Shown in pieces: positions 7,631 to 45,770 of a stretch of DNA of 64,000 nucleotides. A program made the position numbers and the translations under genes. The DNA is from Dictyostelium discoideum. Taxonomy: Eukaryota. The stretch spans positions 3,264,001 through 3,328,000 of the forward strand of contig CM000151.3 in the NCBI GenBank assembly GCA_000004695.1, written 5' to 3'. Below the pieces are notes generated by a model. That model saw only the letters and a program-made list of their open reading frames with translations. It was not told the DNA's origin and did no database searches. The first letter of the stretch is position 1, and each line of letters starts with the position of its first letter.

Positions 7631-11140
<3,510 letters not shown>

Positions 11141-11466: not shown

Positions 11467-12277
11467 ATTTAATTTTTTTTTTTTTTTCTTTTTTTTTATT
11501 ATTATTGTTATTATTATTTTTTTCTTTTTCTTTTTCTTTTTTTTTTTTTTTAAATTTTTAAAAAAACAAAAATAAAAAGAAAAAAAAAAAAAGCTTTTTT
11601 TTAAATATTCAAAAATCTTTTAAAAAATAGAGAAAAGAAAAAAAAAAAAACATTATCCAAATTTAATTTCTTTATTAACTAGGACATTTTTTATGTGAAA
11701 ATGCACTGTAGTAAGATTTCCTGAGTTTTGAGGATTTAATCAATGGATTTTGCCGTTTTTTTTTAAAAGCAAAAGATATTTTTTTAATTTTTTTTTTTTT
11801 TAATTTTTTTTTTTTTTTAATTTATTTTGCCTCCAATCACAAAATAAAAAAACATTTTTAAAATAAAAAAAAAAAAAAAAAAATAAAATTAATTGTTTAA
11901 TGAAAGATTAAAATAATAATACGATTCGTATTTTTTTTTTTCGCTTTACTCCAAAATATTTAAATTTTTTTTTAAAATTATTGTGTTTATTGTAAAGAAT
12001 AATTTTTTTTTTTTTTTTTTTTTTCTTTTTTTTTTTTTTTTCTAATTGTTGAGTTTTAATTATGGTTATAATTTTTCATTACATGTTGCTTGACTATAAT
12101 TCGTTTTTTTTTTTTTTGGGTTTTTGGGTTTTTGGTTAAAAATAGTACTAACGTGTTTTGATCATTGAGCGATTTGAAAACATTAATTTTTTAATTTTTT
12201 AATAATAATTAACACTTGTACGAAATAAAAAATAAAATTTTTTTTATTTATTTTTTTTTTTTTCCTTAAAACCCAAG

Positions 12278-12314
<37 letters not shown>

Positions 12315-12432
12315 TTTTGAATAAAAAATAATAAATTCAAAAAAATTAATTTGTTTTGTTATTTCCATCTTTAAAAAACAGGTTTATTTTTATTTTTTTT
12401 TAATTTTTAATCTTTAATATTATTATTATTAT

Positions 12433-12472
<40 letters not shown>

Positions 12473-12481
12473 CGATTTTTT

Positions 12482-12847
12482 TTATTTAAACAAATTTTGA
12501 ATTGAACAGTAGTTCGACTGTCTAGAGGAAATTATGGAATTTTTAGGATCTACCAAATGTTTAGGTTTTCTACCTCTTTTAAATTGATCTGGATTGGTAC
12601 AAGCGGGACATTCTTGGTCTTTGCAAAGATTTTTGTGACACTTTTCATGTCTACGACGGTGTTTTGTGTGGCAGAGGAAAGTGCAATCAGAGTGGCGGCA
12701 CATTACCATTGGTTTATTTGAAGCAGATTTATTTCTTACAGCACCTGCATGTTTCTTGGTAATATGTCTTGAGAGTGAGCTAGCGTAACCATAAGACATG
12801 CTGCAAAATTTTTGGGTACATTTGTAAGCACCTTTTTCAGTTTTCAT
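12482..12847 (-). CDS. Small Cys/His-rich protein (121 aa) with C2H2-like zinc-finger spacing
   Basis: ATG verified (cat at 12845-12847 on plus). Finger-like units are 'CTQKFCSMSYGYASSLSRHITKKH' (C-x4-C-x12-H-x5-H) and 'CRHSDCTFLCHTKHRRRHEKCH'. Its GC content is visibly higher than the surrounding intergenic DNA. Confidence 0.5.
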   Translation of the reverse strand: MKTEKGAYKCTQKFCSMSYGYASSLSRHITKKHAGAVRNKSASNKPMVMCRHSDCTFLCHTKHRRRHEKCHKNLCKDQECPACTNPDQFKRGRKPKHLVDPKNSIISSRQSNYCSIQNLFK

Positions 12848-13394
12848 TATTATTATTGTTATTTAAAAAAAAAATTAGAGATATATAGAAAAAAAAAAAA
12901 AAAAAAAAAAATAATATAGATTATAGAGATATATAATAAGAAAAATAAATAAAAATAAATAAATAAAATTGTTTAAAAAAAAAGTAATACATTTTTTTTT
13001 TTTATTTTTTATTTTTTTTTTTTCAAAATCATAGTTGTGTTGAATTTAATTAAAAACTAGTTAAATATGGGACTAAGATGTGGTAAATTTTTTTTTTCAT
13101 TTTTATTATCATTATTTTTTTGCACTGATAATTATTTGAAAAGGAATAAAATAATTGCGATATAATTTACAAATATAAATATATGTAAGTGAGTATACTA
13201 GTATTTTTTTTTTTTTTTTTAATTTTTTTTTTTTTTAAATTAATTAAAAAAGTGTTCAATTATATATTTATTTTGATTTTGATTTTAAGTTAAGTGAATT
13301 GAATTCTTCTTTTTAATAGTGCTTTTTTGATTTTTTTCACTATATATATTTTTTTTTTTACAATTTTTATTGTAAAGATATTTTTTTTTTTTTT

Positions 13395-13536
13395 TTTTTA
13401 AAATAAAAAAAGGTTTGAAACTATCATATCTGCCCAATATCTCTAGGGTTTTAAAAATTTCCATTCATATATTTTTTGTAATTATCTTTATTTAAGTTTT
13501 GTCTAATTAAATGCCTAGATAAAATGGAGTCCAAAG

Positions 13537-13568
<32 letters not shown>

Positions 13569-14409
13569 AAAAATAAATAAAATCATTTTATATCTTTCTC
13601 ATTGTTTGAATAAAAAACAAAACAAATTATTTTATATCTTTCTCATTGCTTAGATTGGGATTTTTATAATTATTTTTTTAAAATTAAATTGTTAAATTTT
13701 TTTTTACTGATCAAAATTTTTTCATATCTTTTGAAAAAAAAAAAATAAAAAAAATCTTAAAAATATAAATAATATTCATTTTAATTGTAACAACTGGTGG
13801 TCGGTGTCATCAGTGTTAGTTTTTCCTAATGATTTCTTTATTGTATTGGTTATTGCTGCTGAAGTTATTGGTGTTGTAATGTTGGGTGATGATGGTGGTG
13901 TCGAATGGTTATTTAATTGTTGTTGAGATTGTTGATTTATTAATTGAATGTGTTGTTGAAGAAGTTGATTTTGTTTATCTATTACCTGCTGCTGTTCCCT
14001 TATTTGACGTTGCTGTTCATTGAATGTTGATACCTGTGGTTGTTGTTGTTGTTCCTCATTATCCTGTTGTTGAGATTCATCATTAGCAATATATTCAATT
14101 TAATTGATGACCGTAGCCCTATCGCGTTTTTATTATTTTGTATATATTTATTACTGAGGTTGAATTAGAAACCTAGTTCTTTTTATAGTTAACAGATTTG
14201 AGCGAACTACTTCAACCTCAGCCGATAGGGTTAGATCCAATTTAAACTACAATATTATATTATTTTAATTTTATTCTAATTAATTATTATTTTCTTTTTA
14301 ATTAAATTATTTTTGAATTTATATTATTATTTTATGTGGTGATTTTGTGTGACATTTTTTTAATATCTGGTATCTAATATCTATTATGAAAACTTTTGTG
14401 AAATTAAAA

Positions 14410-14469
<60 letters not shown>

Positions 14470-14750
14470 AAAATTAAATTTAATTTAAAATTAATTAAAT
14501 TACAACGGGAGAAAACCCCTTTAAACAAAACAATAAGGATGGAGGTGGATTAAAAAAACTCTTTTTGTCCCATAGTAAAACACTATTTTTAGTCAAAAAA
14601 AAAAAAAAATCAAATAATTTCAAACATATTATTTAAAAGTTTAAATTTTTTTATTTTTTTTTTATATTTTTTATTTATTTTTTATATCTCCTACTTTTAT
14701 TAAATTAAAAAAAAATAATCCAAATTATTTTCTTTTTTAATTATTATTAC
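13395..14750. repeat. Composite dispersed-repeat block, copy 1 (modules R1, gene fragment, R2, R3), 3' of AACS-like gene A
   Basis: - R1 13395-13790: 'aaaggtttgaaactatcatatctgcccaatatct...aaatggagtccaaag...' recurs at 17826-18215.
- R2 14100-14530 recurs at 18840-19270. It holds nested inverted repeats: outer 'gtagccctatcg'/'cgatagggttag', inner 'ctgaggttgaa'/'ttcaacctcag', then a ~65-nt poly(T) tract.
- R3 14535-14750 ('ggaggtggattaaaaaaactcttt...ccaaattattttcttttttaattattatt') recurs at 18420-18660 and 19275-19490. Confidence 0.8.
13800..14100 (-). pseudogene. Orphan Q-rich coding fragment (~100 codons, no start) embedded in repeat block copy 1
   Basis: The reverse-strand translation is open: '...EYIANDESQQQDNEEQQQQPQVSTFNEQQRQIREQQQVIDKQNQLLQQHIQLINQQSQQQLNNHSTPPSSPNITTP...'. 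It has coding-like composition but no ATG, and it is absent from repeat block copy 2. Confidence 0.4.
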
Positions 14751-14807
14751 TCTTTTTTTTTTTTTTTTTTTTTAGAACAAAAACAATTTACAAAAACTTT
14801 GCTAAAA

Positions 14808-16823
14808 TTAATTTTTCATATATAACTCTTTGATTTTATAAAATAGTTCAGAGTCATTGACATCGTCTGGTAATTGATAGTTTGGATCATTTAATAAATT
14901 TGATAAAATTTGTCTTGGAATTTTACCAACTTTTGTTTTTGGTAATTGGTTAATAACTATTATTTTTTTTAAGACTGCCAGTGATTCAATATCTTGCGTG
15001 ATGATATTATTAATTTCATTTTGTAATTTATTTAAATCAATTGATGGATTTTCTTTTAATACCAATATACCAATCGGTGCAGTACGACAATCTGGACTTA
15101 AAATACCAATAGAACAACATTCTAAAACTGATGGATGTTTTAAAATTGATGTGTCAATTGTATTTAATTGAATTTTATTACAACTTATCTTAATTTGATC
15201 ATCTGATCTTGAAACAATTGTATAAAATCCTCTTTGATCTATATAACCTAAATCACCTGAATCATAGTAACCTGGAAACCTTGTAAATAGTTGTTTAAAC
15301 TTTTCATCATTTTTATAAAATGTAATTGCAAAACTGGGTGGCATTGGTAGTTTAAATGCAACTAAACCAATTTCATTTGAATTCAAAACTTCACCTTCTT
15401 CTGAAAGTATTGATGGTCTAATATAAATTGATGGTACGCCAGTGGCTCTATAAGGAATATTTAAAGCATGGACACTAATAAATGAAGTTACGCCAATTTC
15501 ACTTTGACCGTATACTCTTAAACATTTTATTTTTAACTTTTGTTCAATGTATTCTGGAATTGATTCTTCAATTACTTCACCGCCACACCATATTTCTTTT
15601 AAATTTGATAAATCATACTTAGAACGTACAATTGTTCCTTCAGGATCAGTTTTAATAAGGTATCTAAATACAGATGGGGATGGAAATGTATGTGTTACTT
15701 TATGTTTTACAATAGCTATCCATAAATCATCTTCTATATGTTCGTTTTTTATAATACCACCTTCATACATTACCAAGGTGTTTCCTCCAGATAATAAACC
15801 ATAAAAGAAACCATGAAATGATACCCACCCAATATTTGCATTTGAAAATACAATTTGAGGTATATCTGATTCTTTACGGAATGTATAGTATTTAATACCA
15901 ACCATATGCGGACCATTACTTCTTACAACAGCTTTGGTATTACCAGTTGTGCCACTTGTATAAAGTATATATAATGGATGACTTGATTCTACTGGTACAT
16001 ATTCATAAAATGGTGATTGATTATTTTCTTTTAATTTTTTAATTTCATCATACCAACTTAATGTATTTGGAATAGTTGGAATATTTTGAACTTTTTTTAA
16101 TTTTGTTTCATCCAAAACTTCATTTCTAAATAGAGTAATTACATTACTTGGTTTAAAAGTTGATAATTCAATTGCTTCTTTTAAATTTGGTGTAAATGTA
16201 ATGATTTCGTCATTAAAAATACCATAATTTGTTGTAATTATTAATTTTGGTGTAATTGTTTCGATTCTATCTATTAAACTTTTAACCGAATAACCATCGA
16301 ATAATGTACATTGAGTTGCACCAATACGAGCACATGATAACATTGCAATTAATGGTTCTAATGTATTTGCCATAAATATTAAAACATTATCATTTTTTGA
16401 AACATTTAAGTTTAAAAGAACTCTTGAAAATTTACATACTTTTTCATATAATTGATAATAGGTTAATTTAATTGTTTTCTTTAAATATGGACATTCATAA
16501 ATTAATGCATCTTGATCTCTTTTAGCAGGATTTTTAATATGAATGTCTAATAAATTATAACATGTATTTAATTCACCACCTTTAAACCAATCTGGATATA
16601 TTTCATCGCCACTATAAACTTTATCATACATTTTTTCCCTTTTATTTTTAAAAATCTTAGTTTTTGTTTTAATTTTAATATCTCTTTTTTAACAAAGAAA
16701 AAAAAAGATATATATTTACCAAAAAACATTCTTTTTAGCAACCTCATCCCAAAAAGCTTCTGGATTAGAATTTGAATAACTGTTATCATTTAAATAATCA
16801 AAAGGATCACTAAGTTTATACAT
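14808..16823 (-). CDS. Acetoacetyl-CoA synthetase-like AMP-binding enzyme, paralog A (2 exons)
   Basis: - Exon 2: 14808..16638, ORF of 607 aa.
- Exon 1: 16720..16823, MYKLSDPFDYLNDNSYSNSNPEAFWDEVAKKNVFW.
- Intron: 16639..16719 (GTAAAT...AG, phase 2), joining as W|EKMYDKVY.
- Motifs: PDWFKGGELN; P-loop YTSGTTGNTKAVVRSNG; YGQSEIG; FPGYYDSGD; SRSDDQIKI; A10 PKTKVGKIPR.
- Closest architecture is AACS (WFKG..LN, SSGTTGAPK, FSKFPG..GD). Confidence 0.85.
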
Positions 16824-17522
16824 ATTTGTTTTTAATTATTTAATAAAATGAAAATGAAAAATTAAATATAATAAAATACAAATGAAATATTAAAAAAAAA
16901 AAAGAAAAAAAAAATTAATAATACTAAATCATGGAAAAAAAAAATTTATACATAAAAATAAATTTTATTGCACCCGTCATTAAAAATTATTCATATTATG
17001 AATATCCTAAATTACAAAAAGTGAGTAAACTAGAATTATGAAATGAATAAAATTAAATAAAAAAAATATGTCCACTAATAATTTCAATTAAGATTATTTA
17101 AAAGATACATGAAAAAGGTTTATTTAAAATCTCCAAATTTATTCCTACTACTTTTTTTTACATATACCATAATTCATAATAAAAAAAAATAAGAAATTAA
17201 TGTCGCAATAAAAAATATAAATAAATAAAATAATATGGAGAATTTTTTGGGAAAGTGCAAAAATTCTAATGAAAAAAAAAAAAATTCTTATTGTTTGTTA
17301 GATAATATTTTTATATAATAAAATTTTTAATAAACTAATATCAATTTCTAATTAATAATTAATCACACTTTATTATTAAATTATCATAAAATAATTAAAA
17401 AGAATCTGGCCATAAAAAAAATATATTTTAATAAATTAAAAATTGAAAAAATCTTATATTATTTAATTAGAATTGAATATTAATTTGTCATTAAATTATA
17501 AAAAATTTATTGATTTACCATA

Positions 17523-17640
17523 TTGTGAGAAATTTTACTATTGTAATTTCTCATTTTTTAAAACATAAAACTATAATTTAATAATATACAACAATTAATA
17601 GGAAATAATACTATTGAAATTTCTCATTTTTTAAAACATT
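17523..17640. repeat. Tandem direct duplication (~60-bp unit x2)
   Basis: 'tattgtaatttctcattttttaaaacataaaactataatttaata' is followed by the near-identical 'tattgaaatttctcattttttaaaacattaaactatagtttaata'. Confidence 0.8.
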
Positions 17641-17825
17641 AAACTATAGTTTAATATATTGTAGATTATTAAAAACTATAATAAAATGATAAAAAATAAT
17701 GGGTGTACAATAAATATTTAAATAAAAAATATTAAAATATAAGAATTTTTATTTTTTTTTAAATAATTTAACATTTTACTAGGTTTTTTTTTCCCGTGCA
17801 AGATATTTTTTTTTTTTTTTTTTTA

Positions 17826-17961
17826 AATTAAAAAAAGGTTTGAAATTATCATATCTGCCCAATATCTATAGGGTTTTAAAAATTTTCATTCATATATTTT
17901 TTGTAATTATCTTTATTTAAGTTTTGTCTAATTAAATGCCTAGATAAAATGGAGTCCAAAG

Positions 17962-17999
<38 letters not shown>

Positions 18000-19148
18000 A
18001 AATATAAATAGAATCATTTTATATCTTTCTCATTGTTTGAATTAAAAACAAAACAAATTATTTTATATCTTTCTCATTGCTTAGATTGGGATTTTATAAT
18101 TATTTTTTTAAAATTAAATTGTTAAATTTTTTTTTACTGATCAAAATTTTTTCATATCTTTTGAAAAAAAAAAAATAAAAAAAAATCTTAAAAATATAAA
18201 TAAATATTCATTTTAATAACCAAACAGTCTAGTTTTTATTTTTATTTGCAGTTTTTTAAGAAAAAAAAATTTAAAAAAATTTATCTATTTTTCCTTATTT
18301 TCTCTATTTTTTTTTTTTTTTAAGGAATATCTCTTTAGTGGTGATAAAAAATAAAAAAAGGATAGAATCCAAAAAATATGGATAATTAATTAATAATTTG
18401 GATATATGTAAAATAATAAGGAAGGAGGTGGATTAAAAAAACTCTTTTCGTCCCATAGTAAAACACTATTTTTAGTCAAAAAAAAAAAATAATTAAAAAA
18501 AAAAAATCAAAAAAAAAAAAATCAAATAATTTCAAACATATTATTTAAAAGTTTAAATTTTTTTATTTTTTTTTTATATTTTTTATATATTTTTTATATC
18601 TCCTACTTTTATTAAATTAAAAAAAAAATAATCCAAATTATTTTCTTTTTTAATTATTATTGTTGGAGGGAATTTTCCATAAAATTTCACTACAGTAGCG
18701 TAGTGAATTTTATTATTTAATTTGACTACGCTGCTGTAGTGAATTCCTATTGACGGTGCGTTCATGAAGTTAAACCTGGGTGGTGTGTGTTACACAATAT
18801 ACCGTGTGAGAATTCACAATAAGCAAATATTTCAATTTTATTGATGTCGTAGCCTTATTGCGGTTTTAATATTTTGGAAAAAATTAAAAACAGAGGTTGA
18901 AATAGAAACCTTAGTTCTTTTTTAAGTTACAAAATTTGTGCGACTTCTTTCAACTCAACCGATAAAGTTAGAATCCATTTTAACTACCAAATTATATTAT
19001 TTTTATTTTATTCTTATTTATTATATATTTCTTTTTTAATTAAATATTTTTGAAATTATAATAATATTTTAAGTGGGGAATTTGTGTGACATTTTTTTTA
19101 TATTTTGGTTTTTAAATATTATAATGAAACTTTTTGTAAAATTAAATA

Positions 19149-19207
<59 letters not shown>

Positions 19208-19490
19208 AAAATTAAATTTAATTTAAAATTAATTAAATTACAACGGGAGAAAACCCCTTTAAACAAAACAATAAGGATGGAGGTGGATTAAAAAAACTCT
19301 TTTTGTCCCATAGTAAAACACTATTTTTAGTCAAAAAAAAAAAAAAATCAAATAATTTCAAACATATTATTTAAAAGTTTAAATTTTTTTATTTTTTTTT
19401 TATATTTTTTATTTATTTTTTATATCTCCTACTTTTATTAAATTAAAAAAAAATAATCCAAATTATTTTCTTTTTTAATTATTATTACTC
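17826..19490. repeat. Composite dispersed-repeat block, copy 2 (R1, R3, GC-rich hairpin element, R2, R3), 3' of AACS-like gene B
   Basis: Same modules as 13395-14750 but rearranged: R1 17826-18215, R3 18420-18660, R2 18840-19270, R3 19275-19490. From the poly(T) of R2 through the gene the two copies are nearly identical. The hairpin part of R2 is more diverged (about 85%). Confidence 0.8.
18668..18745. repeat. Near-perfect 17-22-bp inverted repeat (hairpin) in a GC-richer ~190-bp insertion unique to repeat copy 2
   Basis: 'cactacagtagcgtagtgaatt' - 16-nt spacer - 'ctacgctgctgtagtgaattc', with one mismatch in the stem. The flanking 18750-18850 is also GC-richer than its surroundings. Confidence 0.7.
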
Positions 19491-19545
19491 TTTTTTTTTT
19501 TTTTTTTTTTTAGAACAAAAACAATTTACAAAAACTTTGCTAAAA

Positions 19546-21561
19546 TTAATTTTTCATATATAACTCTTTGATTTTATAAAATAGTTCAGAGTCATTGACA
19601 TCGTCTGGTAATTGATAGTTTGGATCATTTAATAAATTTGATAAAATTTGTCTTGGAATTTTACCAACTTTTGTTTTTGGTAATTGGTTAATAACTATTA
19701 TTTTTTTTAAGACTGCCAGTGATTCAATATCTTGCGTGATGATATTATTAATTTCATTTTGTAATTTATTTAAATCAATTGATGGATTTTCTTTTAATAC
19801 CAATATACCAATCGGTGCAGTATGGCAATCTGGACTTAAAATACCAATAGAACAACATTCTAAAACTGATGGATGTTTTAAAATTGATGTGTCAATTGTA
19901 TTTAATTGAATTTTATTAAAACCTATCTTAATTTGATCATCTGATCTTGAAACAATTGTATAAAATCCTCTTTGATCTTTATAACCTAAATCACCTGAAT
20001 CGTAGTAACCTGGAAATCTTGTAAATAGTTGTTTAAACTTTTCATCATTTTTATAAAATGTAATTGTAAAACTGGGAGGCATTGGTAGTTTAAATGCAAC
20101 TAAACCAATTTCATTTGAATTCAAAACTTCACCTTCTTCTGAAAGTATTGATGGTCTAATATAAATTGATGGTACGCCAGTGGCTCTATAAGGAATATTT
20201 AAAGCATGGACACTAATAAATGAAGTTACGCCAATTTCACTTTGACCAAATACTCTTAAACATTTTATTTTTAACTTTTGTTCAATATATTCTGGAATTG
20301 ATTCTTCAATTACTTCACCACCACACCATATTTCTTTTAAATTTGATAAATCATACTTAGAACGTACAATTGTTCCTTCAGGATCAGTTTTAATAAGGTA
20401 TCTAAATACAGATGGGGATGGAAACGTATGTGTTACTTTATGTTTTACAATAGCTATCCATAAATCATCTTCCATATGTTTGTTTTTTATAATACCACCT
20501 TCATACATTACCAAGGTGTTTCCTCCAGATAATAAACCATAAAAGAAACCATGAAATGATACCCACCCAATATTTGTATGTGAAAATACAATTTGAGGTA
20601 TATCTGATTCTTTACGGAATGTATAGTATTTAATACCAACCATATGCGGACCATTACTTCTTACAACAGCTTTGGTATTACCAGTTGTGCCACTTGTATA
20701 AAGTATATATAATGGATGACTTGATTCTACTGGTACATATTCATAAAATGGTGATTGATTATTTTCTTTTAATTTTTTAATTTCATCATACCAACTTAAT
20801 GTATTTGGAATAGTTGGAATAGTTTGAACTTTTTTTAATTTTGTTTCATCCAAAACTTCATTTCTAAATAAAGTTATTACATTACTTGGTTTAAAAGTTG
20901 ATAATTCAATTGCTTCTTTTAAATTTGGTGTAAATGTAATGATTTCGTCATTTAAAATACCATAATTTGTTGTAATTATTAATTTTGGTGTAATTGTTTC
21001 GATTCTATCTATTAAACTTTTAACCGAAGAACCATCGAATAATGTACATTGAGTTGCACCAATACGAGCACATGATAACATTGCAATCAATGGTTCTAAT
21101 GTATTTGCCATAAATATTAAAACATTATCATTTTTTGAAACATTTAAATTTAAAAGTACTCTTGAAAATTCACATACTTTTTCATATAATTGATAATATG
21201 TTAATTTAATTGTTTTCTTTAAAAATGGACATTCATAAATTAATGCATCTTGATCTCTTTTAGCAGGATTTTTAATATGAATATCTAATAAATTATAACA
21301 TGTATTTAATTCACCACCTTTAAACCAATCTGGATATATTTCATCGCCACTATAAACTTTATCATACATTTTATCCCTTTTATTTTTAAAAATCTTAGTT
21401 TTTGTTTTAATTTTAATATCTCTTTTTTAACAAAGAAAAAAAAAGATATATATTTACCAAAAAACATTCTTTTTAGCAACCTCATCCCAAAAAGCTTCTG
21501 GATTAGACTTTGAATAACTATTATCATTTAAATAATCAAAAGGATCACTAAGTTTATACAT
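19546..21561 (-). CDS. AACS-like AMP-binding enzyme, paralog B (2 exons); recent duplicate of A
   Basis: - Exon 2: 19546..21376 (607 aa).
- Exon 1: 21458..21561, MYKLSDPFDYLNDNSYSKSNPEAFWDEVAKKNVFW.
- Intron: 21377..21457.
- About 14 aa differences from A (about 97.7% identity).
- Same motif set as A. Confidence 0.85.
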
Positions 21562-22263
21562 ATTTGTTATTAATTATTTAATAAAATGAAAATGAAAAAT
21601 TAAATATAATAGTGCACAAACTCTAATGAAAAAAAAAAAAAAAAAAAAAAATTCTTATTGTTTGTTAGATAATATTTTTATATAATTAAAAATAAAAAAT
21701 TTTAATTAAAATAAATTAAATTATTTCCACTAAAATATTTTAGAAATTCTACACACCCCAGTGTGTTTTTTAATTTAATTTAATTTATTTTAATTAAAAT
21801 TTTTATTTTTATGTTGTTTGTTAAAAATGCTAATAATAAGTAAATATTTTTTTAAAGTGCTTGTTACGATTAAAATTAATTTTTTTTTTAAAGATTTTTC
21901 AACATTTGAAACTTATTAAAAAAAAAAAAAATTTTAATCATTACAAACAATATTTATATTATTATTATTTTTTTTATTTAATATTGATTAATCACAGTTT
22001 ATGCATTAAAGGAAATAAACAATAATTTATATCCGTCCTTATTATTTTTTTTGAATTTTTAACCTTTTTTTTAAAACAAAACTTCTAATGTAATCAAAAG
22101 GTAAAACACTATTTTTTATCAAACCAATAAAAAAAAAAAAAATATAATTAAATTTTTTTATTTTTTTATTTATTAAATTTAAAAAATAAATAATTCAAAT
22201 TTTTTTTTTTTTATTATTTTTTTTTCAAAAAATAAAAACAAATTTTTAAATTAAGTTTACTAA

Positions 22264-24281
22264 CTATAAATTTTTCATATATAATTCTTTGATTTCATAA
22301 AATATTTCAGTGTCACTGACATTATGGGGTAGTTGATAATTTGAATCATTTAATAAATTTGACAAAATTAGTCTTGGAATTTTACCAACTTTTGTTTTTG
22401 GTAATTGGTTAACAATTAAAATTTTTCTTAAGACTGCACATGATTCAATATCTTGTGTAATGATATTATTAATTTCATTTTGTAATTTAATTAAATCAAT
22501 TGATTGATTTTCTTTTAATACTAATACACCAATTGGTACACTACGAATAACTGGATCATAAATACCAATCGAACAACATTCTAAAACTGATGGGTGTTTT
22601 AAAATTGACGTTTCAATTGTATTTAATTGAACTTTTTTATAACCGATTTTAATTTGATCATCTGATCTCGAAACAATTGTATAAAATCCTCTTTGATCTT
22701 TATAACCTAAATCACCGGTATTATAATAACCTGGGAATTTAGAAAATAATTGTTTAAACTTTTCATCATTTTTATAATATGTAGTTGCAAAACCTGGTGG
22801 CATTGGTAGTTTAATTGCAACAAAACCAATTTCATTTGAATTCAAAACTTTACCTTCTTCTGAAAGTATTGATGGTTTTATGAAAATTGATGGTATGCCA
22901 GTGGCTTTATAAGGCATATTTAAAGCATGAACACTAATAAATGAAGTTATGCCAATTTCACTTTGACCAAATACTCTTAAACATTTTATTTTTAACTTTT
23001 GTTCAATGTATTCTGGAATTGATTCTTCAATTACTTCACTACCACACCATATTTCTTCTAAATTTGATAAATCATACTTTGAACTGATGATTTTTCCTTC
23101 AGGATCAGTTTTAATAAGGTATCTAAATACAGATGGGGATGGAAATGTATGTGTTACTTTATGTTTTACAATTGTTTTCCATAAATCATCTTCAATATGT
23201 TTGTTATTTATAATACCACCTTCATACATTACAAATGTATTCCCTACAGATAGTAAACCATAAAAGAAACCGTGAAATGATACCCACCCAATATTTGAAT
23301 ATGAAAATACAATTTGAGGTATATCTGATTCTTTACGGAATCTATAATATCTAATACTAACCAAATGTGGACCATTACTTCTAACAACAGCTTTAGCATT
23401 ACCAGTTGTACCACTTGTATATAGTATATATAATGAATGACTTGATTCTACTGGTACATATTCATAAAATGGTGATTGATTATTTTCTTTAAGTTTTTTA
23501 ATTTCATCATACCAACTTAATGTATTTGGTATCGTTGGTATATCATTTACTTTTTTTAAATTTGTTTCATCCAAAACTTCATTTCTAAATAAAGTTATTA
23601 CATTACTTGGTTTAAAAGTTGATAATTCAATTGCTTCTTTTAAATTTGGTGTAAATGTAATGATTTCATCATTTGATATACCATAGTTTGTTGTAATTAT
23701 TAATTCTGGTGTAATTGTTTCGATTCTATCTATTAAACTTTTAACTGAATAACCATCGATTATTGTACAATGAGTTGCGCCAATACGAGCACATGATAAC
23801 ATTGCAATTAATGGTTCTAATGTATTTGACATATAAATTAAAACAACATCATTTTTTGAAACATTTAAATTTAAAAGTACTCTTGAAAATTCACATACTT
23901 TTTCATATAATTGATAATATGTTAATTTCTCAGTTTTCTTTAAAAATGGACATTCATAAATTATTGCATCTTGATCTCTTTTAGTAGGATTTTTTGTATG
24001 AATGTCTAATAAATTATAACATGTATTTAATTCACCACCTTTAAACCAATCTGGATAAATTTCATCACCACTATAAACTTTATCATACATTTTATCCCTT
24101 TATTTTAAAAATATTAGTTTTTGTTTTAATATTAAAATCTCTTTTTTTATAAAGAAAAAAAAAAAAGATATATTTACCAAAAAACATGCTTTTTTGCCAC
24201 TTCATCCCAAAAATCCTCAGGATAAGAATTTGCATAATTACTGTCATTTACATAATTAAAAGGATCACTAAGCTTATACAT
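22264..24281 (-). CDS. AACS-like AMP-binding enzyme, paralog C (2 exons)
   Basis: - Exon 2: 22264..24097 (608 aa).
- Exon 1: 24178..24281, MYKLSDPFNYVNDSNYANSYPEDFWDEVAKKHVFW.
- Intron: 24098..24177.
- P-loop GNAKAVV; A10 PKTKVGKIPR. Confidence 0.85.
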
Positions 24282-24753: not shown

Positions 24754-26290
24754 TCATATATAATTCTTTAATTTCATAAAATATTTCAATGTCAATGATA
24801 TTATCTGGAAATTGAAAATTTGAATCATTAAAAACTTTGGTCTTGGAGTTTTACCAGCTTTGGTTTTTGGTAATTGATTAACAACTACAATTTTTCTCAA
24901 GACTGCTAACGATTCAATATCTTGTGTAATGATATTATTAATTTCAGATTGTAATTTATTTAAATCAATTGAGTTGATTGATCTTGTTTTTGCTTTAAAA
25001 CTTTTTTTCAATGTATTCTGGGATTGATTCTTCAATTACTTCACCTCCAACCATAAATTCTTTTAAATTTGATAAACCATACTTTGAACGTATAATTGTT
25101 CCTTCAGGATCAGTTTTAATAAAGTATCTAATAGTGCTTGCCAATGACAATGCATGTGTCACTTTATGTTTTTCAATGGTATTCCAAAAGTCAACTTCAA
25201 TATATTTGTTTTTTATAATACCACCTTCATACATTATAAATGTAGATCCAGATGACAACAAGCCTTATAGGGAACCATGAAATGATATCCATCCGACATT
25301 TGAAAATGTAAATAATTTTATATTTTCATATTTTTCTGAAATATATCTGTTAAAGTAATTCATACAAACTAAATTTGGACCATTACTTCTTACAACTGCT
25401 TTAGCATTACCAGTTGTACCACTTGAATAAATAATATATAGTGGATGACTTGATTCTACTGGTACATATTCATAAAATGGTGATTGATTATTTTCTTTAA
25501 GTTTTTTATTTTCATCATACCAACTTAATGTATTTGGTATCGTTGGTATATCTTTTACTTTCTTTAAATCTGATTCGCTTGTAATATCATTTCTAAATAA
25601 AGTAATTACATTACTTGGTTTAAAAGTTGATAATTCAATAGATTCTTTTAAATTTGTGATGAAATTAATGATTCCATCATTAAAAATACCATAGTTTGTT
25701 GTAATTATTAATTTTGGTGTAATTGTTTCAATTCTATCTATTAAACTTTTAACTGAATAACCATCGAATAATACACAATGAGTTGCACCATTATGAGTAC
25801 ATGATAAAATTGCAATTGGTGCTTCAACCGTATTTGCCATATATATTAAAACATTATCATTTTTTGAAATATTTAAATTTAAAAGTACTCTTGAAAATTC
25901 ACATACTTTTTCATATAATTGATGATATGTTAATTTTACAGTTTTCTTTAAATATGGACATTCATAAATTAATGCATCTTGATCTCTTTTTAATGGATTT
26001 TGAACTTGTTTATCTTTATTTTTAGACTTGTTTCATATAAATTATAACATGTATTTAATTCACCCTTTAAACCAATCTGGATACATTTCATCACCACTAT
26101 AAACTTTATCATACATTTTATCCCTTTTAAAAATATTAGTTTTTGTTTATATTTTTTATATAAAGAAAAAAATGTATTATCTTACCAAAAAACATTCTTT
26201 TTTGCAACTTCATCCCAAAAAGCCTCAGGAAAAGAATTTGCATAATTGAAATCATTTAAATTATTAAAAGGATCACTAAGTTTAAACATT
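24754..26290 (-). pseudogene. AACS-like pseudogene D: multiple frameshifts and an internal deletion
   Basis: - The homologous reading frame is split across ORFs 24754..25035, 24995..25261 and 25265..25840.
- Further frameshifted N-terminal pieces run to ~26110. One example is 'ccctttaaaccaatctgg', which lacks 2 nt relative to the 'ccacctttaaaccaatctgg' of intact copies.
- An exon-1-like segment survives at ~26185..26290 (MFKLSDPFNNLNDFNYANSFPEAFWDEVAKKNVFW).
- About 140 codons of the middle are missing. Confidence 0.8.
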
Positions 26291-43761: not shown

Positions 43762-45770
43762 ATGTATAAATTTAACTATGAAAATGAAATTGATTTAGCA
43801 AATAACAGACCAATAGAATTTTGGGATGAAGTTGCAAAGGATTTAGTTTATTGGTAAGTTTTTATTTCTTTTTTTTATTTTTTCAATTGTCATTGCAAAA
43901 AACTAATAATTTAAAATTAAAAAAAAAGGGATAGAATGTATGATAAAGTTTATAGTGGTGATGAAATTTATCCAGATTGGTTTAAAGGTGGTGAATTAAA
44001 TACATGTTATAATGTTTTAGATATTCATATAAAAAATCCAGAAACAAGAGATCAAACTGCATTAATTTATGAATGTCCATTTTTAAACAAAAATATAAAA
44101 TTAACCTATTATCAATTTTATGAAAAAGTATGTGAATTTTCAAGAGTACTTTTAAATTTAAATATATCAAAAAATGATAATGTTTTAATTTATATGTCAA
44201 ATACAATTGAAGCACCAATTGCAATGTTATCATGTGCTCGTATTGGTGCAACTCATTGTGTGTTATTCGATGGTTATTCAGTTAAAAGTTTAATAGATAG
44301 AATTGAAACAATTACACCAAAATTAATAATTACAACAAATTATGGTATTTTTAATGATGAAATTATTACATTTACACCAAATTTAAAAGATGCAATTGAA
44401 TTATCAACTTTTAAACCAAGTAATGTAATTACTTTATTTAGAAATGATATTACAAGCGAATCAGATTTAAAGAAAGTAAATGATATACCAACGATACCAA
44501 ATACATTAAGTTGGTATGATGAAATTAAAAAATTCAAAGAAATTAATCAATTACCATTTTATGAATATGTTCCAGTAGAATCAAGTCATCCATTATATAT
44601 AATATATACAAGTGGCACAACTGGTAGTGCTAAAGCAGTTGTTAGAAGTAATGGTCCATATATGGTAGGTATTAAATATCAAACATTGATACAAAAGGGT
44701 AAAATAAAAGTTGTGTTTTCTCATACAAGTATTGGCTGGGTATCATTTCATAATCTATTATATGGTTTATTTTCAGTTGGATATACATTAGTTATGTCTG
44801 AAGGAGGAGTGACAAAACCAAAACATATGGAAGATGATATTTGGGAAATTATTGAAAGAAATGAAGTAAGTTGTGCATTCACAATGGCTAAAGCAATTAG
44901 ATACTTAATTAAAGTTGATCCTGATTGTAAAAATTTACATTCAAAGTATGATTTATCTAATTTAAAAGAAATGGTACTTGGTGGAGAACCAATTGAAGAA
45001 TCAATTTCAAATTATATTCAGGAGAAATTAAAAGTTCAATCAACTCGTGTATATGGTCAAACTGAAACAGGTGTCGTTTATTTTTAGGTTTTGATAATAA
45101 AAATTTAAAAATTCCAATTAATACATGTGGAGTTTCATTTCCATCTTTAAAAGCAAAGGTTTTTTCAGATGATGGTAAGGAATTACCTTTGTATGAAATT
45201 GGTGAGCTTGTATTTAAATTACCTTTACCACCAGGTTTTACAACTACATTTTATAAAAATGATGAAAAGTTTAAACAATTATTTACAAAATTTCCAGGTT
45301 ACTATTACCCTGGTGATTTAGGATTTAAAGATGAAAATAATTGTTATGGTGTTGTTTCAAGATCAGATGATCAAATTAAAATCAGTGGTAATAAAGTTCA
45401 ATTAAATAAAATTGAAACATCAATTTTAAAACATCCATTAGTTTTAGAATGTTGTTCAATAGGTATTAATAATCCAGATTGTTATAATGTACCAATTGGT
45501 ATATTAGTTTTAAAACAACAAGAAGAAAATCAATCAATTCGACAAATTGATTTAAATAAATTACAATCTGAAATTAATACAATAATATCAAAGGATATAG
45601 AAAATTTTGCAATTTTAAGAAAAATTTTAATAGTTCCACAATTACCAAAAACTAAAGTTGGTAAAACTCAAAGACAAATCATTTCTAAATATTTAAATGA
45701 TACAAATTTTCAATTACCAGATAATGTTTGTGATGTTGAAATCTTTTATAAAATTAAAGATTTATAATAA
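43762..45770 (+). pseudogene. AACS-like pseudogene I (duplicate of H) with in-frame TAG and frameshift
   Basis: - Exon 1 (43762..43853) and its intron are intact.
- Exon 2 from 43929 reads through to 'YGQTETGVVYF*' at 45087. There H has 'tatttttattgttatgattat', I has 'tatttttaggttttgataat': a TAG plus a 1-nt deletion.
- The homologous C-terminus continues in another frame (ORF 45189..45767).
- An orphan fragment of the AACS N-terminus (NTCYNVLDIHMKNPLKIDQDALIYECPY*) also sits at 43470-43570. Confidence 0.75.

Follow-up and report, generated by a model that had tools for sequence, protein, structure and literature searches.

A truncated remnant, very probably of a miniature Tdd-4 transposon derivative, behind an acetyl-CoA-synthetase-like gene of Dictyostelium discoideum

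Genes and sequence features of the locus

The DNA analysed here, a stretch of 64,000 nucleotides referred to as the window, is from Dictyostelium discoideum and lies inside a tandem array of acetyl-CoA-synthetase-like genes. Its GC content is about 20% and it contains long A/T runs, including poly-T tracts of more than 55 nt at 19150-19207 and 14405-14470. The ORF at 19546-21369 (minus strand) is 100% identical to DDB_G0273229 of D. discoideum AX4, and the ORF at 14808-16631 (minus strand) is 98% identical to DDB_G0273365 of the same strain; both encode acetyl-CoA-synthetase-like AMP-binding proteins. They belong to a tandem pair of duplicated units, copy 1 (about 13375-16916) and copy 2 (about 17800-21653). 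Since the genes are on the minus strand, the hairpin described in this report lies downstream of the copy-2 gene. The raw 607-aa and 121-aa ORFs had no exact match among recorded proteins, as the real genes contain introns or start elsewhere, and a tRNA/tmRNA scan of the DNA found none. The array comprises about 12 acetyl-CoA-synthetase-like paralogues in two divergently oriented tandem blocks, at 14.8-33.8 kb (minus) and 40.9-51.9 kb (plus). Fragmented copies are also present, e.g. at 25265-25840 and 43936-45767.

Concerning the relation of the two tandem genes, their 3' ends and flank are 100% identical over about 680 bp (14400-15080 versus 19140-19818), with only about 78% identity in the intergenic DNA that adjoins this tract. 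The tract marks a sharp, recent gene conversion between the tandem paralogues.

Behind the copy-2 gene, an inverted-repeat search finds two arms of 35 nt (18676-18710 and 18719-18753) that are 80% complementary, and the core of the hairpin is a 19-bp stem, one G.U pair included. The RNA fold of 18670-18760 has a free energy of -34.4 kcal/mol, whereas shuffled sequences average -13.4 (z -7.5) and none of 200 is as good; the minus-strand fold is similarly stable (z -7.4). The initial annotation had pointed to a strong inverted repeat in a GC-richer segment. Both observations hold: the repeat is far beyond chance, and GC reaches 29-37% over 18650-18850 as compared to 5-23% in the flanks. Its details were less exact. 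The two 22-bp strings quoted as reverse complements fail to pair over their full length, since their 'gtgaatt' tails are direct repeats, and the spacer, given as 16 nt, is 21 nt long between AAATTTCACTACAGTAGCGTAGT (18683-18705) and ACTACGCTGCTGTAGTGAATT (18727-18747).

The features of the site are given below. L001 denotes the orthologous locus in D. discoideum assembly GCA_054883475.1, reached via protein P0001, and L006 and L009 are two loci with ends of the transposon Tdd-4; TSD stands for target-site duplication, TIR for terminal inverted repeat.

18415-18660, minus strand: P', a paralogue of the 3' flank found behind the acetyl-CoA-synthetase-like genes, and the DNA that received the element (sequence identity)
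18656-18660, no strand: left TSD copy, ATTAT (ATTAT is on both sides in L001)
18661-18743, plus strand: very probable truncated mini-Tdd-4, positions 1-83 of a 108-bp element (blastn against the 108-bp element)
18661-18707, plus strand: left arm, matching the 47 terminal nt of Tdd-4, TGTTGGAGGGAATTTTCCATAAAATTTCACTACAGTAGCGTAGTGAA (45/47 against the ends at L006 9431 and L009 9642)
18686-18707, plus strand: 22-nt subterminal motif TTCACTACAGTAGCGTAGTGAA (pattern scan)
18708-18721, plus strand: 14-nt spacer TTTTATTATTTAAT, the hairpin loop (the same spacer lies between the 22-nt motifs of Tdd-4)
18722-18743, minus strand: right-arm remnant, the inverted 22-nt motif with 2 mismatches (pattern scan and alignment)
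18744-18830, minus strand: X1', decayed N-terminal part of a Q-rich ORF fragment (alignment to copy 1, 14003-14090)
14743-14747, no strand: ATTAT, the empty target site of the paralogous copy-1 flank (multiple alignment of flanks)
19481-19485, no strand: ATTAT as empty target site, in the flank that immediately follows the copy-2 gene (multiple alignment of flanks)

The receiving flank P' is 97-98.7% identical to the flank copies 14532-14747 and 19270-19485 and 100% identical to L001 12191-12436. By blastn the 108-bp element matches the window at 18661-18753 (element 1-93, 93.5%). The last 10 nt of this match are explained better by the neighbouring X1 homology, which starts at about 18744-18749, and the element-derived part is therefore 18661-18743. 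The window copy lacks the right TSD copy and, in the right arm, the outermost 25 nt; X1' is joined directly to the truncated element at 18743/18744. The segment first delimited as 18660-18850 thus begins at 18661, and its element-derived part stops at 18743, not at 18850.

The same segment had been described as having no counterpart in copy 1. This is correct for 18218-18749 only, as 18750-18850 aligns, gapped and diverged, to copy 1 14004-14132 (77% over 131 columns, E 8e-13). The reading frame of X1' in copy 2 is interrupted by stops, while on translation the copy-1 frame is open for about 105 codons. The second 'symmetric' block of the initial annotation is a decayed ORF fragment, because X1' is broken by stops; of the 'gaattc...gaattc' symmetry there remains only an 8-bp pair, GTGAATTC/GAATTCAC, 63 nt apart within this remnant. 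In copy 1, the corresponding X1 (13786-14100, minus strand) is an unannotated frame of about 105 Q-rich codons (IEYIANDESQQQDNEEQQQQPQ...) that is cut off at the boundary of the duplicated segment A; it is probably a gene fragment or pseudogene. Beside it, 14113-14232 forms a nested inverted repeat, AGCCCTATCG...CGATAGGGTT around CTGAGGTTGAA...TTCAACCTCAG, whose RNA fold has a z of -3.8 in copy 1 and which is degraded in copy 2 (18846-18965, z 0.1). It has no Rfam match at gathering threshold, and may be a structured RNA or what is left of a further palindromic element.

An intact 108-bp palindrome in L001 and the ends of Tdd-4

At the same site as the window hairpin, L001 holds an intact palindrome of 108 bp (L001 12083-12190), composed of 47-bp arms with one mismatch and a 14-nt centre and bounded by the termini TGTTG...CAACA. 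Its sequence is TGTTGTAGGGAATTTTCCATAAAATTTCACTACAGTAGCGTAGTGAA-TTTTATTATTTAAT-TTCACTACGCTACTGTAGTGAAATTTTATTGAAAATTCCCTACAACA, and folded as DNA it reaches -51 kcal/mol (z -18.5). It is located 66 nt past the stop codon of the orthologue of DDB_G0273229, the copy-2 gene, and its position relative to this gene is exactly that of the empty site 19481-19485 in the window. Copies of the 5-bp sequence ATTAT border the intact element on both sides, and the empty site, ...AATTATTATTACTC..., follows copy 1 in each of the two strains and, in the window, also the copy-2 gene. ATTAT on both sides together with empty paralogous sites is what an insertion with a target-site duplication of 5 bp leaves behind. 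The search for such duplications that had been proposed at the outset is in this way answered by the intact allele, while the window has kept the left copy only.

The ends TGTTG...CAACA and the 5-bp TSD led us to suspect an integrase-type element. Tdd-4 is a cut-and-paste DNA transposon of D. discoideum (Bao, Kapitonov and Jurka 2010, PMC2836005), reportedly the subject of a study by Wells in 1999. It falls into the Ginger2/Tdd group, and its DDE transposase is retroviral-integrase-like. TDD-4 and TDD-5 of D. discoideum make 5-bp TSDs, the termini of Ginger2/Tdd elements show the pattern TGTNR, as do the ends of Gypsy LTRs, and the TIR of TDD-4 is listed with 260 bp (PMC2836005, the last in its Table 2). 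In agreement with the TGTNR...CA termini of the group, the 108-bp element starts with TGTTG and, in the intact allele, ends with CAACA; it has a 5-bp TSD in L001, and its ends are those of TDD4-transposase-bearing elements at L006 9431 and L009 9642. These elements were found with the TDD4 transposase core XP_629668 (supplementary file 1 of PMC2836005) as query, which identified protein P0069 with 98% identity. L006 and L009 are the loci of P0069 and of P0091, a protein from the cluster of P0069, and are of the same strain as L001.

The left ends of Tdd-4 start at L006 9431 and L009 9642, and from each it is about 580-630 nt downstream to coding sequence that runs in the same orientation and is 94-98% identical to TDD4 (94-96% by tblastn). 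Because the bases preceding the left ends differ between the two loci, the element starts at TG. At both left ends TGTTGTAGGGAATTTTCAATAAAAT is followed by tandem units of 36 bp, each composed of the 22-nt TTCACTACAGTAGCGTAGTGAA and the 14-nt TTTTATTATTTAAT. There are two units in L006 (22-nt motif at 9456 and 9492) and three in L009 (9667, 9703 and 9739), i.e. the unit number is variable between the left ends L006 9431-9513 and L009 9642-9760. Two other readings of the palindrome were ruled out by these ends: a CACTA element with a 3-bp TSD, since the Tdd-4 ends at both loci begin exactly at TGTTG after unrelated bases, and a 110-bp PIF/Harbinger element with a TTA TSD, for which the exact start at TGTTG is likewise decisive.

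Aligned with the left ends of Tdd-4, the right arm of the palindrome, once reverse-complemented, agrees at 47 of 47 positions, and the first 64 nt agree at 63 of 64. The 108-bp element therefore consists of Tdd-4 left end 1-61 and the inverted terminal 47 nt. An integrase-like transposase (H2C2 + DDE) is absent from the 108 bp, of which 83 bp are in the window. In translated search, the stop-free frame of the element had no protein relative and brought up no candidate for an ORF called over another copy. As it has no transposase gene, the element is a non-autonomous derivative and not an autonomous member of the family. The right end of full Tdd-4 would be an inverted copy of the left end (in this group a TIR of 145-260 bp), going by the 260-bp TIR of the literature and by relatives. 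In one relative, at L010 12586 (minus strand), the right end is inverted and shares the terminal motif, and a Tdd-like relative in L007 (3733-12193) has the ends TGTTGTAG...CTACAACA and the 5-bp TSD TCATT.

History of the site and competing explanations

We regard the window hairpin, with high though not complete confidence, as a dead, right-truncated and immobile remnant of a 108-bp two-ended Tdd-4 derivative. A full-length Tdd-4 would have given rise to the derivative through loss of its interior between subterminal 22-nt repeats, either in situ or before mobilisation in trans. The junction of the 61-nt and 47-nt parts (..GTGAATTTTATTATTTAATTTCACTACGCTACTG..) lies at the expected start of the second direct 22-nt motif, and both junction partners begin with TTCACTAC. 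This microhomology of 8 bp fits abortive (interrupted) gap repair or slippage. The 22-nt motifs may be transposase-binding sites, with cleavage presumably at the TG/CA ends and integration via cuts staggered by 5 bp. In the window, a second event would have cut the element at 18743/18744, either by deletion from a three-unit ancestor or by an insertion of about 730 bp, and would have joined it to the decayed ORF fragment and then to the second gene-flank copy. Since the right terminus and the right TSD are lost, the window copy is unable to transpose. The hairpin potential would be a by-product of the inverted termini, and the palindrome may represent a fragile site for rearrangement.

This bears on the origins that had initially been suggested. 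The notion of a transposon terminal hairpin is correct in that both arms are Tdd-4 terminal sequence, but the hairpin is not the end of a larger element here. Like an excision footprint, it is a transposon-end remnant at an insertion site between TSD copies. Classical footprints, however, comprise a few bp, whereas 61 + 47 nt of both ends are kept here; for this reason interrupted gap repair or internal deletion fits, and end-joining after excision does not. An excision footprint of the classical few-bp type is therefore not the explanation of this two-ended internal-deletion derivative with a lost right tip. Nor is the segment unique in the genome and free of a TSD: the intact allele has the duplication, and the arm recurs at Tdd-4 ends.

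Window and L001 are identical over 13404-18665 and 19490-22500 save for homopolymer lengths (one poly-T run and one extra T). At 12008-13403 about 20 SNPs are found in 1.4 kb, from which it follows that the window and L001 are different strains; this block is followed by more than 5 kb without substitutions, a mosaic haplotype pattern. Tract lengths differ by 8-14 nt between the assemblies at window 14414-14427, 12303-12310 and 12435-12442. Within the element, three bases are changed in 83 nt, while the 5-kb flank is identical, and a plain deletion fails to account for this. The window has about 730 extra bp (18744-19480), namely the X1' tail, B' and the second flank copy P, in that order; they stand where L001 has the right tip of the element with its right TSD copy. 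B' is only about 78% identical to B of copy 1 and hence an old paralogue rather than a recent copy. The most economical model starts from a three-unit ancestor, geneY-P-B'-X1'-...-geneX-[element]-P'-x-A-...-gene1. From it, the window haplotype would derive by a deletion from X1' into the right arm of the element, and the L001 haplotype by unequal crossover between geneY and geneX. The alternative history is an insertion of the about 730 bp into an L001-like haplotype.

It is possible, though we lean against it, that the 108-bp element is a true miniature inverted-repeat transposable element (MITE), moved recently in trans by the Tdd-4 transposase and inserted as a unit. This would refine the reading as a Tdd-4 derivative rather than contradict it. 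Size, 47-bp TIRs, 5-bp TSD and absent coding capacity fit a MITE, for which short and non-coding is the rule. The arms are 100% identical to Tdd-4 ends beside coding sequence that is 94-98% TDD4-like, suggesting recent origin; the site differs between two close strains; and short non-autonomous Ginger2 derivatives exist elsewhere (Ginger2-1N1_NV, 252 bp, more than 50 copies; PMC2836005). Against this, the 61|47 junction occurs at one locus only in about 330 kb of Dictyostelium DNA (the window and L001-L003 and L005-L013), and an in-situ internal deletion of a full-length insertion yields the same structure. Allowing up to 3 mismatches, no further copies of the element were found in the 64-kb window. 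Exact-pattern scans of prokaryotic genomes and viral contigs gave no match, and a single exact match in metagenomes, in a contig of 45% GC, was discarded as chance. In the literature searched, no MITE family was found for D. discoideum. A bolder version appears rather unlikely to us: mini-Tdd-4 would be a currently mobilisable Tdd/Ginger2 MITE, intact or truncated depending on the strain, its 47-bp palindrome would be the fragile site that drove the 730-bp difference, and in the 3' UTR, in the other strain, it could also supply the DrnB pathway with hairpin small RNAs.

Palindromes are unstable in E. coli, and palindrome-stimulated deletions in plasmid clones are well known. The truncated form with its about 730 bp might accordingly be a cloning or assembly artefact of the reference, the true genome being intact as in L001, and indeed over 13404-22500 the window and L001 differ only in or beside the palindrome, apart from homopolymer lengths. 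We nevertheless consider an artefact quite improbable. The extra segment 18754-19140 is unique and about 78% identical to its paralogue 14004-14400, and therefore exists in the genome and was not made by repeat collapse. Moreover, the two assemblies are from different strains (about 20 SNPs in 12008-13403), which makes a real polymorphism plausible, and an artefact leaves the three base changes in the arms unexplained.

Still less probable is a small hairpin ncRNA, as proposed in the initial annotation, or a miRNA precursor whose stem is kept for processing by the Dicer DrnB. An RNA hairpin is stable on both strands, there is a weak, sub-threshold resemblance to generic miRNA models (mir-3129, 28.5 bits versus a gathering score of 90), and D. 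discoideum miRNAs from a DNA-transposon-derived repeat, thug-S, are a reported precedent (PMC4894637, PMC6161686). However, Rfam gave nothing at gathering threshold over the whole window, and by E-value only sub-threshold generic miRNA/snoRNA matches in 18300-19100. Six 12-13-mers over the arms were searched in the supplements of PMC6161686, PMC11014262 and PMC4894637, all of which do contain miRNA sequences, and none of the six was present. The hairpin is absent from the paralogous flanks, and no copy was seen in the loci of the divergent strains ACTFIW, ACTFIR and ACTFIY, whose 3' flanks are too diverged for site-by-site alignment. The two hairpin-bearing alleles differ structurally, and the complementarity is fully explained by transposon TIRs. 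With no Rfam family at threshold and no trace in the searched miRNA tables or at paralogous sites, the ncRNA proposal is not borne out. A DUSE-like motif, TCCCATAG at about 18453, was considered as ncRNA promoter and dropped; it lies about 230 nt away, within the duplicated 3' flank of the gene.

A palindrome made locally by inverted duplication in break repair, without any transposon origin, would suit a rearrangement junction that abuts the palindrome and a right arm that in part superficially resembles copy-1 sequence (TACCTGCTGCTGT), but it appears effectively refuted, as the local alignment of the element with copy-1 X1 scores 20, which 125 of 500 shuffles reach, the same 47-64 nt are at two unlinked Tdd-4 ends, and the intact allele is bounded by TG..CA ends and a TSD of 5 bp. 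A derivation of the right arm from the neighbouring X1 was rejected for the same similarity, which is not above shuffles.

Comparison with known elements and Tdd-like relatives

The mini element resembles Tdd-4 in its terminal 47 nt, which are identical to the left ends, in its TGTNR and TG..CA ends, in the AT-rich 5-bp TSD and in the shared 22-nt subterminal motif and 14-nt spacer. Unlike Tdd-4, which is 3.8 kb in size and has the 22-nt motif two to three times in tandem per end, the mini element is 108 bp long (83 bp in the window), has no transposase gene and keeps one motif per end; the window copy moreover is without the right terminus. With MITEs such as Ginger2-1N1_NV (252 bp, 52-bp TIRs; PMC2836005 Table 2) it shares short, non-coding structure, partner-derived TIRs, a TSD and a hairpin. 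MITE families are multicopy, whereas mini-Tdd-4 is known from one locus. The hairpins of the thug-S miRNAs (PMC4894637, PMC6161686) are, like it, foldable and derived from a DNA transposon in the same species. Its parent, in contrast, is Tdd-4, and it is not in the searched published miRNA tables.

What lies behind the copy-2 gene adds a copy or derivative to a transposon family already known; it is an ordinary transposon fossil and not a new RNA gene. An odd GC-rich hairpin is explained as a fragment of a known-family transposon and a candidate ncRNA is removed, which adds little beyond annotation. Points of interest to the specialist are that two-ended miniatures derive from Tdd-4, with 8 bp of microhomology at the deletion junction, that close D. 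discoideum strains have a structural difference with a breakpoint inside a palindrome, and that a 16-nt terminal motif, TGTTGTAGGGAATTTT, is common to several Tdd-like families. Should further copies exist, Dictyostelium would have in this element a MITE linked to a DNA transposon of the integrase type.

The 16-nt tip occurs, with 0-1 mismatch, in at least three otherwise divergent Tdd-like element types. The sites L006 12971, L007 842 and L008 9644 represent one related type, and L007 3733 (plus) and 12193 (minus) are the two ends of another. Transposases adjoining these ends in the Tdd-like relatives are 44-70% identical to TDD4. In addition, three short Logan contigs assembled from public sequencing runs, L011-L013 (SRR26869243, SRR26869247 and SRR26869268), carry the N-terminal region of the Tdd-4 transposase (96% over aa 1-51). 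Around the Tdd-4 copy in L006 there is an inverted duplication of 696 bp (8735-9430 versus 12276-12971, 98.1%) with a second Tdd-like terminus at its edge, an arrangement suggestive of Tdd insertions that were nested or self-targeted.
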